DNA from: an uncultured Gammaproteobacteria bacterium
GTDB lineage: Bacteria > Patescibacteriota > Microgenomatia > Daviesbacterales > UBA10151
Direction: 5' to 3'
DNA length: 8,131 bases
Assembly: GCA_964522265.1 (NCBI GenBank)
Contig: CAZFVS010000048.1
Coordinates: forward strand, 1 to 8,131
Part shown: in pieces, positions 3,516 to 8,131 of the stretch
How positions within the stretch are numbered: position 1 is the stretch's first letter
Layout: the number at the start of each line of letters is the position of its first letter
Program-made: the position numbers and the translations under genes
Notes under the pieces: generated by a model
Database searches by the model: none
Seen by the model: only the letters and a program-made list of their open reading frames with translations
Told to the model about the DNA's origin: nothing

Positions 3516-3773
3516 TTAACTCACAGTTTTGTGGAGTACTGAAGCAGCATAGGTTTGGTAGGGAAGGCCCTCTTTGGCAGCTTTGGTTTTTAGATTATGC
3601 AGATCCCGTTCAGAGAGCCTAATATTGATATTTTTAGTCTTATTTAAGGTGTTTCTGGCTGCAGCCATAAGCTCTTTTTTAACCCTTGCAAAATTTTTAA
3701 CCCTAACTAATTTACCCTCCTCAAAGGCTTTTAAGATTTCTTCTTCTTCTGGATCTAACTGATAGAACTTCAT
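3516..3773 (-). CDS. brnA: BrnA-like antitoxin (ribbon-helix-helix/CopG type).
   Basis: 85 aa. The segment NINIRLSERDLHNLKTKAAKEGLPYQTYAASVLHK matches the i.iRl...dl..lK..A...GlpYQtli...lH signature of BrnA-type antitoxins. Its start overlaps the stop of the upstream toxin by 1 nt (TAATG). Confidence 0.8.
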   Translation of the reverse strand: MKFYQLDPEEEEILKAFEEGKLVRVKNFARVKKELMAAARNTLNKTKNINIRLSERDLHNLKTKAAKEGLPYQTYAASVLHKTVS

Positions 3774-4051
3774 TAGTTGTTTCCCCTTAGGTATTTTTTA
3801 GTAGCTTTCCTACTAGGAATAATCGTTTTTAAAAAAACTTTTTCTTCATCCCGTACAAAAGGTACTAAATAAGCATAATCATCTATTTCCACAACCATTA
3901 TTTTTTGGTTAGGATATCTTATTTGATTAGGGTGATCAAATGTATCTAATAATCTTCCTGAATCTACGGCTACCTTTATATCTTCAAACGCAATACCCCG
4001 CACTTTCTTCAAAAGTACATTTTTACCTTTATCCCAATCAAGGTATTTCAC
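3773..4051 (-). CDS. brnT: BrnT-like toxin (DUF497 family).
   Basis: 92 aa. LDWDKGKNVLLKKVRGIAFEDI ... FLKTIIPSRKATKKY matches the DUF497 pattern (f.WD..Ka..N..KHgvsFeea ... iRIISARkAtk.E...Y). The toxin-first gene order is typical of BrnTA. GTG start. Confidence 0.75.
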   Translation of the reverse strand: MKYLDWDKGKNVLLKKVRGIAFEDIKVAVDSGRLLDTFDHPNQIRYPNQKIMVVEIDDYAYLVPFVRDEEKVFLKTIIPSRKATKKYLRGNN

Positions 4052-4086: not shown

Positions 4087-6322
4087 TAATGCCAGGCCAT
4101 TTGGAGAGCATGATTGATTGTTCTGTATGAGGAAGTTTTCTCCAAAACTCTTCTGTTAAAAAGGGTATGAATGGGTGGAGGAGTTGCAGTGATGTTTTTA
4201 AGACATATTCTAAGGTGGGTTGTGCCTCAGCACGCCTTTTTTTTGTGTTTTCAATATAAATATCGGCAAAATCATGCCAGATAAAGTCATAAAGTTTTTC
4301 AGTAGCTAAATGAAGGTTGAAAAATTCTATATTTTTGGTTACTTCTGATATTGTTTGATTTAGTTGCTTGAGAATTTTTTGGTCATCAGAGTGAAGCCGT
4401 TCGGGGTCCTGTCGGACTTTACCCCCATCCGATGTCCTCACTTCGTTGCGGGCACTCGATGGGGGTCCCCCAAGTCCGCCACCCCTCGCCACTTCTCCTG
4501 GAACCAAATCCACCACAAACCTGGTGATGTTTCTTATTTTTGTACCAAAGTTTCTGTAATTTTTACATCTTTCATCCATGATCTGTCTTGACGTCTTAGC
4601 ATCCCGTCCAGGAGCGCAGTAGCTGTAAAGTGCCATCCTGGTTGCATCGGTTCCCCACTGCTTAACAAGTTCATAAGGATCAATACCGTTTCCGAGGGAT
4701 TTGGAGAACTTTCTGCCCTGCAAATCCCTGATCATGCCATGGAAGAACATGTTTTTAAACGGTATTTCATCCATAAACCAAACTCCAAGCATAATCATTC
4801 TGGCTATCCATAAATATTTGATCTCCGGGGCTGTCAGTTCAAAATTCCACGGATAGTACCTTTGAAGCTCTTTTGTCCGGTTTGGCCCGCCTTCGTTATG
4901 ACTACGACGGGTAGACCAGTCTAAGGTAGCCATGGGCCAAAGACCCGAGGAAAACCAGGTGTCAAGTACCTGCTCGTCCTGAACCCATCTTGAGAGCTGG
5001 CAGGTCTGGCATTTTTTAATTTCACCTGAATCAGGATCTTTTGGCTCATCCAGTGAAATTACCATGTCTTTGTCTTTGCCTACTTCATGATTGGGGTTGC
5101 ATTTTTGACAGTACCAGACCGGAATCCGGTGGCCCCACCAAAGAGAGCGGGAAATTGACCAGTCATGCACGTCTTTGATCCAATCTGATATAATCTTGTT
5201 GTAATTTTTAGGCACAAAATTGATTTTATGAATATGTTTTAGGGCTTTTTGAGCCAAAGGCTGCATTTTAACAAACCATTCCTCAGAGATTAAAGGTTCA
5301 ATGGTTGTTTTGCAGCGCTCGCAAACCGGAACTGAATGGGTATATTCCTCAACTTTTTCGAAAGCTGCTGATTTTTCCAGTTTTTCCGCAGCCTTTTCCC
5401 TGGCCTCATTAACTTTAAGCCCGGTAAGATCATCCGCCAATTCAGTCATACGGCCGAGTTTATCAACGCAGTGCAAAATAGGCAGTCCGTGTTCTTTGCC
5501 GATTTCATAATCAAGCGGGTCATGGCCGGGTGTAATCTTTAAAGCACCGGTTCCAAAATCTTTTTCAACACGTTTATCTTCAAAGATTGGGATTTTATTT
5601 CCGTTTAAGGGGTTGATGGCAACTTTTCCGATAAATTTTGCAAATTTGGGGTGCTTTGGGTAAACCGCGATTCCTGTATCAGCGTAAATAGTCTCAGGTC
5701 TGGCGGTGGATATGGTAATAAATTCTGCTGTTTTATCAATTTGGTATTTAACATAAAAAAGTTTTTCCTTTCTTTCCTCGTATTCCATCTCTAAATCTTC
5801 AATCGCTGTCTGGTCTTTGGGGCACCACTGGACAATGTAGGCACCTTTATAGAGTAAATCCTGGTCCCAAAATGTTTTAAATTCCGCCAAAACAGCTTGT
5901 TGGACTTTTGGCTCCAGGGTAAAAACTTCTCTTGACCAATCAGCAGAGAGTCCCATCAACTTCCAGGTATCATGGAAAGCCTGGTAATTTTCGTCTTTAA
6001 ACTGCCAGGCTTGTTTCATCCATTCCTCCCGCCCCAATTTTTGCTTACTTAAACCCTCTTTTTCCAAAAGTTTGTTTAAAGTCCCCTCAAAAAGTATTCC
6101 GGCATGGTCAACACCGGGAAGCAGCAGGACATCAAACCCCTGCATTCTTTTAAAACGGGCAACGGCATCCAGGATTGCATGCTGCATGGCGTGACCCAGA
6201 TGCAGGGGCCCATTAACATTTGGCGGAGGGATTAAAAGAGAATAAGGTGTGTTGGTAGAATTTGGGTTTGCCTGAAAAAGATTTAATTTCTCCCAAAACT
6301 GATAAATAGATTTTTCGTCCAT
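4076..6322 (-). CDS. valS: Valyl-tRNA synthetase, short form without the C-terminal coiled-coil.
   Basis: HIGH motif HLGH at 6191-6202 and KMSKS motif KFSKS at 4697-4711, both verified by reverse-complementing. Editing-domain motifs are present ([34 protein letters not shown]), as are Cys knuckles CERCKT and CQKC...CQTC. The ATG at 6320-6322 is preceded by AGGAAG (6327-6332). The ORF-track TTG at 6361 has no SD but cannot be excluded. Confidence 0.95.
   Translation of the reverse strand: [748 protein letters not shown]
4403..4485. repeat. GC-rich imperfect palindrome inserted in-frame in valS.
   Basis: Paired arms: gggg (4403-4406)/cccc (4482-4485); cggactt (4413-4419)/aagtccg (4472-4478); cccccatc (4422-4429)/gatggggg (4458-4465). 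By hand count, 60 of 90 bases in 4401-4490 are G or C, against AT-rich flanks. It encodes [35 protein letters not shown]. Confidence 0.6.
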
Positions 6323-6364: not shown

Positions 6365-6925
6365 TTAAGAGACAAGCGTAATACGGCAGATCTCCGAGAG
6401 ATCAAAAGGGACCTTTTGGTAATGGTTATTACCGTCTATAAATGCGACAATCAGTTCATTTTTATTATTCCGGGTAACGCTTATCACTTTTGTTGTCTGA
6501 AAATTAGCAACTGAACTTGTAGTTTCTATAGTAAAACCTGTGACCCCTCCGATTTCAAGCAGTAACCTATTAGCGCGGATATTATTTTTTGTATTATGGT
6601 TGGATGCTGTCCCATATGCCTCCAAATATACTTTGCCTGGATTGGGTCTCCGGTATCTTTTTAGAGTAGGCCATTTTGAACAGTCTTCCAGGACTCTTCT
6701 TTCCGGGGATTCAGATGCAGATTGGTGTTCCTTAAAAACTAAACTATCACCATCAAATTCATCAACCTGGAGGTTAAGTTTTCTGAAGCTTAATTTCTTA
6801 ATTTCACCGGAGTCTTTATCTAATATTATTTTGAAACGGTCATATGTCCCTTCTAAAATAGGGTGGACCAGATCGTTAATCCATAACCTGCTATTTAGAG
6901 AGATAAAAAACTCTTTTTCTTGCAT
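6365..6925 (-). CDS. Hypothetical protein, 186 aa, no recognisable family.
   Basis: ATG-to-TAA ORF between tsaD and valS on the same strand. A near-consensus promoter lies immediately upstream. Lys/Glu/Asn-rich composition is typical of this genome's genes, whereas the overlapping plus-strand ORF (6540-6953) is Ser/Leu-rich and looks like a shadow. Confidence 0.6.
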   Translation of the reverse strand: MQEKEFFISLNSRLWINDLVHPILEGTYDRFKIILDKDSGEIKKLSFRKLNLQVDEFDGDSLVFKEHQSASESPERRVLEDCSKWPTLKRYRRPNPGKVYLEAYGTASNHNTKNNIRANRLLLEIGGVTGFTIETTSSVANFQTTKVISVTRNNKNELIVAFIDGNNHYQKVPFDLSEICRITLVS

Positions 6926-6980: not shown

Positions 6981-8131
6981 TTAAAAGAGACTTAAATTAG
7001 GATCGGCCTGGATTGTAAGGGGGTTTTGTGGTTTTTCAAAAAATGCGCGTGAGGCAATCATTGCTGCATTGTCGGTACAAAGATAAGGAGGAGGAACCAG
7101 TATGCGGATTTCGGATTTCAAATTTCGGAGTTCGGATTTTAAATCAGCAGTAAGTTTTTTATTTGCTGCAACACCGCCTGCAGTAATAATTTGTTCAACA
7201 TTATATTTTTGGGCAGCCATAATAGTCTTTTTGACAAGTACATCTGTGATAGCCTGTTCAATAGAAGCACAGAGGTTATTCCGGAACGACTCGGAAAGAC
7301 CCCATGATTCAGAATTTCGGATTATCTGACTACCAAACTGACTAGTTTTCTGATTTTCTGAGTAATTCTGAGTTTTCTGAACCAGATTTGCTACCGCAGT
7401 TTTTAAGCCTGAGAACGAAAAATCAAAATCATTTGAGTCTATCATCGGACGGGGTAATTTGAACCTAAAGGCGTCCCCTTTCCTGCCTGTCGGCAAGGCA
7501 AGCGAGGCTAGTTTGGAAATTTGGGGGCCGCCTGGGTAAGGCAGGCCTAAAAGCCGGGCGCATTTATCAAAACATTCCCCTGCAGCATCATCCCTGGTGC
7601 CGCCTAAATATTGGTAGCTATGGTGGTTTTTCATTAAAATTAGGTCAGTATGCCCTCCAGAGACAAGCAAGCCAATACAGGGAAATTTAGGAATCCCAAA
7701 AACGTCATTGCGAGGAGGGGGTGGAGCGACCGACGTGGCAATCTGAGCTGTTGTTAGAGTTTGCTTCGCCACTTCGTGGTCTCGCAATGACGAAGGAAAG
7801 ATCCAACTTGCGTAAAAATGACCCATGAGGTGGTTGATAGGGATCAGGGGTTTATTCCAAACCAGCGAGAGTGTTTTGGCTGTCTCAACACCCACCAGAA
7901 GAGAACCGATTAAGCCCGGGCCTTGAGTGACGGCGATAGCATCAATAGCCGGACGGTGGATGGTGGAAGACAGAAGATGGTTTTTTGAGGACGGAGGGTA
8001 GAGGTTGGATTGGACCAATACTTCTTGAATAACAGGGATGATGCTTTTGATCTGCTCCCTGGCTGCCTGCTCAGGGATAATACCTCCATATTTTGCCTGC
8101 AAGTCAGCTGAGGATGCTACAATATTGGATA
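6981..8131 (-). CDS. tsaD: tRNA N6-adenosine threonylcarbamoyltransferase TsaD (Kae1/Qri7 family). The N-terminus runs off the window.
   Basis: Motifs [84 protein letters not shown] and CTDNAAMIA are present. The frame stays open upstream of the track's TTG at 8102 (..[16 protein letters not shown]), which matches the conserved TsaD N-terminal region. Confidence 0.95.
   Translation of the reverse strand, partial: [382 protein letters not shown]
7105..7139. repeat. Five tandem heptanucleotide units inside the tsaD coding sequence.
   Basis: cggattt (7105-7111) cggattt (7112-7118) caaattt (7119-7125) cggagtt (7126-7132) cggattt (7133-7139). It encodes [12 protein letters not shown] on the minus strand. 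Confidence 0.7.
7346..7380. repeat. Four imperfect tandem copies of ttttctga(g) inside tsaD.
   Basis: tctga occurs at 7349-7353, 7357-7361, 7367-7371 and 7376-7380, with spacings of 8, 10 and 9 nt (27 nt in total, so in frame). It encodes [14 protein letters not shown]. Confidence 0.6.
7703..7792. mobile_element. 90-nt palindrome-bounded GC-rich element inserted in-frame in tsaD (MITE/RPE-like).
   Basis: The terminal inverted repeats are perfect: cgtcattgcgag (7703-7714) and ctcgcaatgacg (7781-7792). The length is exactly 30 codons. By hand count, 52 of 90 bases are G or C. It encodes [30 protein letters not shown], which is absent from E. coli TsaD at this position. Confidence 0.65.

Follow-up and report, generated by a model that had tools for sequence, protein, structure and literature searches.

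A CGTC-tagged REP dimer in frame in tsaD

The stretch of DNA analysed here (the window; 8,131 nucleotides (nt), positions 1 to 8,131 of contig CAZFVS010000048.1, assembly GCA_964522265.1) carries in its tsaD gene a 90-nt palindromic element, which is an inverted dimer of two repetitive extragenic palindromic (REP) units with a CGTC tag. The superfamily of these repeats is already known; Patescibacteria, or candidate phyla radiation (CPR), are a new host lineage for it and tsaD is a new gene. Both the window organism and its closest sequenced relative are members of this lineage, near Candidatus Daviesiibacteriota. The best explanation as a whole, to which we assign a probability of about 0.85, is that a CGTC REP dimer became fixed in tsaD and has been kept as a translated in-frame loop.

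An earlier note on this DNA had described an in-frame segment of tsaD, 90 nt long, which begins 8 residues after the NHLMGH motif and is bounded by inverted repeats of 12 nt without mismatch. Coordinates and translation confirmed this description, and conceptual deletion of the segment gives the uninterrupted motif stretch that the note had stated. The note's main interpretation was likewise borne out wherever it was put to the test. The two arms (CGTCATTGCGAG and CTCGCAATGACG) are 100% complementary over 12 nt and, with the 66 nt between them, make up exactly 90 nt. An inverted repeat of 12 nt with a spacer of at most 100 nt is present in 5.6% of block-shuffled windows, so that the repeat by itself is only marginally unusual and a weak argument; family membership is what carries the case. 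This membership, established by the exact 24-base pattern of the arms and by a covariance model, puts the element beyond chance. The model, named R1, was built from alignment A2, which holds 78 distinct units of other bacterial genomes and excludes the window. Searched against the window with filters off, R1 yielded exactly two matches, one for each unit of the element.

The two units lie on opposite strands with their tags outward, and their inner hairpins are unlike each other. Unit B is built from the CGTC tag, the stem ATTGCGAG pairing with CGTGGCAAT, an inner segment of 19 nt that is a degenerate loop or hairpin, and the tail CTG. Unit A is built from the CGTC tag, the same stem ATTGCGAG pairing with CGAAGCAAa, in which the outermost pair is broken, the mini-hairpin ACCAC-GAA-GTGG, and the tail CTC. 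The unit B stem consists of ATTGC/GCAAT and a closing G-C pair with GA/GU between them, and in unit A the outermost pair is lost (GCAAa); the 8 stem positions, which include a conserved purine-purine block, therefore give only 5-6 Watson-Crick pairs. Unpaired CGTC tags are found at both ends of the element (7703-7706 on the plus strand and 7792-7789 on the minus strand). Each arm thus combines the CGTC tag of one REP unit with the 5' half of its stem, which identifies the structure as a heterodimer with outward tags ('HH') and not as the terminal inverted repeats (TIRs) of a transposon. The GC content of the element is 0.578 versus 0.442 in the remaining tsaD. RNA folding, a check that the earlier note had proposed, revealed a strong hairpin (-33.7 kcal/mol, z=-3.4).

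Table 1 Coordinates of the element, its parts and the motifs of its host gene in the window.
Feature	Position	Strand	Details
Whole element	7703..7792	.	90 nt = 30 codons in the tsaD frame; inverted HH heterodimer of two CGTC-tagged REP units, tags outward
REP unit B	7703..7746	+	R1 cmsearch 35.7 bits, E=3.4e-10
REP unit A (5' half in the mRNA sense)	7756..7792	-	R1 cmsearch 25.8 bits, E=8.2e-7
Inter-unit spacer	7747..7755	.	Between the two R1 matches; short, non-conserved, apex of the long hairpin
Left 12-nt arm CGTCATTGCGAG	7703..7714	+	
Right 12-nt arm CTCGCAATGACG	7781..7792	+	
tsaD host gene	6981..8131, N-terminus beyond the window edge	-	Catalytic motifs intact; Pfam PF00814, TIGR03723 and structure match
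NHLMGH metal-binding motif	7818..7835	-	8 residues upstream of the insert; both His invariant in alignment A1
SGGHT motif	7647..7661	-	Downstream of the insertion loop

Relation to known repeats and spread of the family

CGTC-tagged REPs were described as families CGTC-1 to CGTC-4 by Di Nocera, De Gregorio & Rocco 2013 (BMC Genomics 14:522; PMC3733652). In that definition, a unit consists of the CGTC tag, a stem of 8-9 bp starting with AT, a loop of 4-5 nt and an unpaired 3-nt CCA tail; the first and second stem positions are complementary A-T pairs, and the loops are variable in some families (PMC3733652). The units, reported from five phyla, are usually arranged as inverted dimers whose tags face outward, often as heterodimers, and the superfamily includes Rickettsia conorii RPE-4 and RPE-6 as well as Neisseria dRS3 (PMC3733652). 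Copies in frame within genes, including tRNA synthetase genes, are documented, with dimers that encode 20-30 residues, and the Rickettsia CGTC-1 stem ATTCCCGC...GCGGGAAT gives rise to the peptides VIPAKAGI / SFPRKRES (PMC3733652).

The window element shares with these repeats the terminal CGTC tag, the predominance of HH dimers, often heterodimers, that are able to fold back into a single long hairpin, the variable spacers, the in-frame intragenic copies of 20-30 amino acids (aa) and the lack of a flanking transposase. It resembles them in part in its stem, which begins with AT but has lost the outermost pair in unit A, and in its short tail. It differs from the published description in its Patescibacteria/CPR host, which is outside the five phyla, in the long variable inner hairpin of each unit (12 nt and 19 nt, versus the published loop of 4-5 nt), in the conserved GAG/GAA purine mismatch block of the stem, and in the CTC/CTG tails in place of CCA. 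The likeness to Rickettsia palindromic elements (RPEs) seen by the earlier note is more than an analogy, since the published superfamily contains RPE-4 and RPE-6. Common to both are palindromic repeats in frame in housekeeping genes, a small gene-dense genome, and translation as extra surface segments, which is probable for the window element, whereas RPE-4 and RPE-6 have a different stem sequence and a different host lineage, and the Rickettsia CGTC-1/4 peptides differ from the window insert peptide. The RPEs were reportedly described by Ogata et al. in 2000 and 2002; RPE-1 is a longer and unrelated element. GTAG REPs and REPINs resemble the window element in their short hairpin units, 4-nt tag, inverted doublets and lack of target duplication, but their tag is GTAG instead of CGTC and GTAG REPs are mostly extragenic. 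They are mobilised by REP-associated tyrosine transposases (RAYTs), and we know of no RAYT association for CGTC REPs. A literature search for in-frame palindromic repeats in CPR proteins found no paper.

The earlier note had likened the arms to a palindromic repeat family of many assemblies, and this family proved real and widespread, with a shared unit plan. A scan of one genome per species for the two arms (24-base pattern) separated by a gap of 50-80 nt found the exact arm pattern in at least 120 loci of diverse bacterial genomes. Taxa among the matches listed include Bradyrhizobium, sphingomonads, Pedobacter/Mucilaginibacter, Rickettsiales, Legionellales, Anaerolineae, Margulisiibacteriota and others. 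The copies follow a common plan of CGTC, ATTGCGAG, a variable loop or mini-hairpin (often centred on GCGAAGC), CGAAGCAAT, a CCA or CTC tail and a variable spacer, followed by the same unit inverted. The inner segment is hypervariable across the family and usually still forms a hairpin: the commonest reference units have 5-nt loops (CGAAG, CGCAG), alongside many variants with a longer hairpin. Tails of the reference units are mostly CCA(G/T), with CTC in a subset, and the spacers vary in all copies, even within one genome. The exact arm pattern was also identified in 96 viral-contig stretches (L203-L298, from IMG/VR contigs), some of them with 2-3 copies (L229, L264). Viral or prophage carriage may be how near-identical arms spread between phyla, or these stretches may be host DNA inside prophage calls.

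Patescibacteria tsaD loci hold 21 R1 units in 419 kb, and their arm matches number 35 versus 4.8 expected. Rfam has no match at the element in a scan of the window, nor in seven loci with canonical copies, and a search of NCBIfam with the insert peptide gave neither an RPE nor any other match at E<=10; the family is covered by neither database.

The host gene and the fate of the insert

The Pfam TsaD model scores 263 bits (3.4e-78) in a match that the insert splits in two, and TIGR03723, an equivalog model of NCBIfam, reaches 308.7 bits, above its cutoff of 296.1 despite the insert. The 30 codons of the insert contain no stop, and they extend the loop to 37 residues versus 5 in solved TsaD structures. 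The structure model of the window TsaD matches E. coli and Salmonella TsaD; in this AlphaFold model, the mean predicted local distance difference test (pLDDT) value is 72; the insert has values of 38-53, and those of the core are about 90. The connector loop that probably houses the insert follows the HxxxH metal site and tolerates extra residues. The earlier note had asked whether a structure prediction would place the 30 residues in a surface loop; low pLDDT is indeed confined to the insert, but the low confidence itself makes the placement of the loop indirect.

Whether the insert is translated or removed was judged from the 80 best of 305 metagenome tblastn loci together with the window and the syntenic locus of its closest relative (L121). 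These were not taken from gene calls, and one metagenome locus lacked motif positions, leaving 81. In 81 of these 81 loci, a single frame without an intervening stop connects the up- and downstream motifs of tsaD. The 41 distinct inserts at the site are likewise all in-frame, stop-free multiples of three and add from about 10 to 125 nucleotides. Family copies elsewhere have no such bias (40/36/53 by length modulo three). Moreover, about 18% of the copies elsewhere lie well inside long open reading frames (ORFs), versus 16 of 17 arm sites checked in Patescibacteria loci. In-frame, stop-free inserts here and the lack of length bias elsewhere argue for translation of the insert as a loop instead of splicing or bypass, and selection acting on a translated insert would predict such a pattern.

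The opposite view, also raised in the earlier note, is that the segment is excised as an intron-like RNA or skipped by programmed bypass, as in byp of yeast mitochondria and T4 gene 60. The GC-rich segment inside an AT-rich gene and the strong mRNA hairpin, which could bring the flanks together, agree with this view, and the window element shares with the inserts of Magnusiomyces mitochondria and T4 gene 60 a GC-rich hairpin within AT-rich coding sequence. However, bypass inserts need neither frame nor freedom from stops, and removal would not impose the constraint seen in the 41 inserts at the tsaD site, each of which preserves the frame; the lack of length bias in copies elsewhere, the difference of exactly 3 nt between the window copy and that of the closest relative, and the lack of an Rfam match also speak against it. 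Every insert at the site in these loci being in frame and stop-free, we consider removal or bypass highly improbable.

Empty sites and other occupants of the loop

The homologues collected for TsaD are Patescibacteria proteins, e.g., P0002 from Candidatus Daviesiibacteriota. Measured from GHFYANW to the downstream motif, the loop has 6-9 aa in 23 of 120 homologues, with 6-8 aa in 22 of these. In 90 others its length is 10-54 aa, and the other 7 of the 120 fall outside the motif pattern used for loop extraction. Three kinds of occupants were identified. The first is the CGTC family itself, read in different frames (SSLR..AKQS..IATS..PRND, VIAS..., VIPS..SEESQ..APRND), the second is of the CGTC-1 type (VIPAKAGI...SGMT), and the third comprises many unrelated inserts that are palindromic in DNA (HLPGV..HLEGV, ESRVK..SRLSTL and others). 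The 54-residue loop of P0103 holds a CGTC-1 type dimer (VIPAKAGI…SGMT) and a spacer with three tandem copies of YNKVSSSA.

Nearest-neighbour identities and UPGMA (unweighted pair group method with arithmetic mean) ordering show that the nearest neighbour of a filled TsaD is often empty or otherwise filled. A clean filled/empty pair at the DNA level is formed by L122 and L299, whose cores are 89% identical in amino acids: relative to L299, L122 has gained 84 nt that hold a 78-nt CGTC/TGTC hybrid dimer. Empty sites in TsaD relatives, which the earlier note had proposed to look for, therefore exist as short loops and as this pair. These observations bear on the idea that the insert is an ancestral, lineage-specific TsaD loop whose palindrome is coincidental. 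The presence of the same insert in the closest relative and the 5.6% of shuffles with a comparable inverted repeat would fit such a loop, but the highly significant DNA-level match to a cross-phylum repeat family, the empty sites and unrelated inserts in close TsaD relatives, and the peptides from several frames of one DNA family at the site (SLR..., VIAS..., VIPS...) make it barely conceivable.

Two further features were observed in tsaD. A second hot spot precedes IDAIAVT (alignment A1 columns 100-125), where single CGTC units (…LPRP.GARNDGIG…) occur in several Patescibacteria; its carriers are L126, L141, L164 and L201, about 130-170 nt into the tsaD match region. A 21-nt in-frame insertion at 7482-7502 (minus strand) encodes LALPTGR and forms the small hairpin CTTGCC GACA GGCAGG. 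It is unique to the window and missing from all 27 aligned homologues, including one of 82% identity.

Closest relative and turnover at tsaD and valS

The closest relative is GCA_016186955.1, whose syntenic locus L121 has a DNA identity of 78-88% to the window and contains 4 units within 21 kb. Its tsaD carries the orthologous element, with a length of 93 nt versus 90 nt in the window. Over their first 70 nt the two copies are alike except for a single base, unit A of the window is identical to L121 10434-10470, and one arm base is altered in L121 compared with the window copy. The inner hairpin of the second unit has been swapped, from GGTCGCTCCACCCCCT at window 7715-7745 to CTCCGATGGACATCGGAG at L121 10480-10514 or the reverse, and the L121 version is a perfect 8-bp hairpin.

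At one valS site, two genomes that are about 85% identical, those of the window and L121, hold entirely different inserts. The L121 insert (13106-13171) is a CGTC REP dimer with abutting tags ('TT'; …CTTCGCAATGAC|GTCATTGCGAG…), and CGTC units, single or dimeric, occupy the same valS site in other Patescibacteria (L152, L154, L189, L184, L123). The window insert (about 4400-4500, minus strand) is an in-frame palindrome, GEVARGGGLGGPPSSARNEVRTSDGGKVRQDPERL, of a family different from the CGTC element; its GC content is 0.64 versus 0.41 in the rest of valS, and it folds with -55.8 kcal/mol. Peptides akin to it (…ARSEV.TS…QDPE…) fill the tsaD loop in P0010, P0029, P0070 and P0111. In the essential Patescibacteria genes tsaD and valS, palindromic repeats colonise the same loops again and again and re-occupy them rapidly.

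Retention of the element across about 15% DNA divergence with the window arms still perfect, and the filling of the same loop in most Patescibacteria TsaDs, would also be expected if the element had been co-opted, i.e., if the encoded loop or the mRNA hairpin served TsaD, for example by translation pausing between the two ASKHA subdomains or by contact with a partner or tRNA. We regard co-option as improbable, as the occupants are unrelated in sequence and length, 23 of the 120 homologues do without an insert, the inner hairpin is rewritten between close relatives, and the model shows the insert without ordered structure.

Flanks, mobility and proposed history

The flanks of 129 family copies were compared, and no target-site duplication beyond chance was found: direct repeats of 2 bp flank 8 copies, those of 3 bp flank 2, that of 5 bp flanks 1, and those of 4, 6, 7 or 8 bp flank none. 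No direct repeat flanks the window copy either, and in none of the 129 copies does the palindrome extend into the flanks. A preference was identified for a pyrimidine at -1, before the tag, and for a purine at +1, after the opposite tag. The lack of target-site duplication argues against a MITE (miniature transposable element with inverted repeats) of the DDE type. Such an element, a deletion derivative of an insertion sequence (IS) with 12-bp TIRs at its ends and moved by cut-and-paste, would account for the perfect terminal repeats, the small size and the dispersed multi-copy family. It is nevertheless very improbable: 2-8 bp duplications are lacking, the interior consists of two complete REP units that R1 recognises separately, single units and 'TT' dimers also exist, spacers vary even inside one genome, and no parent IS was found in the 2013 survey (PMC3733652). 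Of the '12-bp terminal inverted repeats' named in the earlier note, the perfect arms stand, but they are not transposon ends.

The duplication-free flanks are compatible with hairpin-dependent single-strand transposition as in the GTAG REP/RAYT system. By analogy with that system, the repeats may have spread as single-stranded DNA hairpins through an HUH/tyrosine-type or other enzyme. The dimer was probably fixed in tsaD in the common ancestor of the window organism and its closest sequenced relative, and its translation probably adds about 30 residues, likely flexible, to the protein surface. The element has probably been kept because its length is a multiple of three, without stops, and its loop tolerates insertions. 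The fast rewriting of the inner mini-hairpin would be accounted for by gene conversion or by template switching from copy to copy, and the hypervariability of a segment that still keeps its hairpin fits such processes as they are known for quasi-palindromes. The recurrence of inserts at one loop would be due mainly to selection, because insertions into a gene-dense genome last only at in-frame sites that tolerate them.

Several points weigh against this history of a fixed and translated CGTC REP dimer. The units depart from textbook geometry in their long inner hairpins, their CTC/CTG tails and one broken stem pair. Outside the element, neither the arm pattern nor R1 finds a second CGTC unit in the 8,131-nt window. 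The selection of the best 80 of 305 tblastn loci could under-sample disrupted genes. Because the structure model has low confidence across the insert, the term 'surface loop' is a deduction. Finally, the 2013 survey found for CGTC REPs neither a dedicated transposase nor a mobilising enzyme (PMC3733652).

A bolder scenario is that CGTC REPs, which according to the 2013 survey are possibly 'going toward extinction' (PMC3733652), and several other palindromic families are still, or were recently, mobile in Patescibacteria and home repeatedly to two loops each of tsaD and valS, possibly targeting resident hairpins or repeats. Essential genes would be safe havens in this case, because imprecise loss would be lethal. 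We consider this scenario possible but unlikely.

Other features of the window

An ORF of 186 aa lies between tsaD and valS (6365-6925, minus strand) and has no Pfam match. It is missing in the syntenic relative, where tsaD and valS lie 35 nt apart, and an identical ORF was found on a 1.1-kb contig from SRR12113420 that is without the element. Two small gene pairs on the minus strand (2488-2984 and 3516-4051) resemble toxin-antitoxin modules, and the second corresponds to the BrnT-toxin and CopG-antitoxin matches of L121. In the rplY gene for L25 (1300-1603, plus strand), the C-terminal tail is long, acidic, rich in purines and of low complexity (EEAKAEEGAEEGEKVEGE…), and this purine-rich tail is the reason for a local peak of GC and GC skew.

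Significance of the tsaD element

A peptide motif that annotators know well (…SLR/VIAS…AKQS…IATS…PRND…) is now tied to a defined repeat superfamily. Such inserts inflate and split domain matches in CPR proteins and distort marker-gene alignments and phylogenies, and a simple covariance model can mask them. The different elements in the same tsaD and valS loops of genomes about 85% identical provide a natural system in which the turnover of palindromic repeats can be measured. The copies in Patescibacteria also offer a route to the mechanism by which CGTC REPs are mobilised. Patescibacteria genomes have only about 1,000 genes, and if the tentative scenario of ongoing or recent mobility is true, they would be the most tractable place for finding the enzyme that mobilises CGTC REPs.

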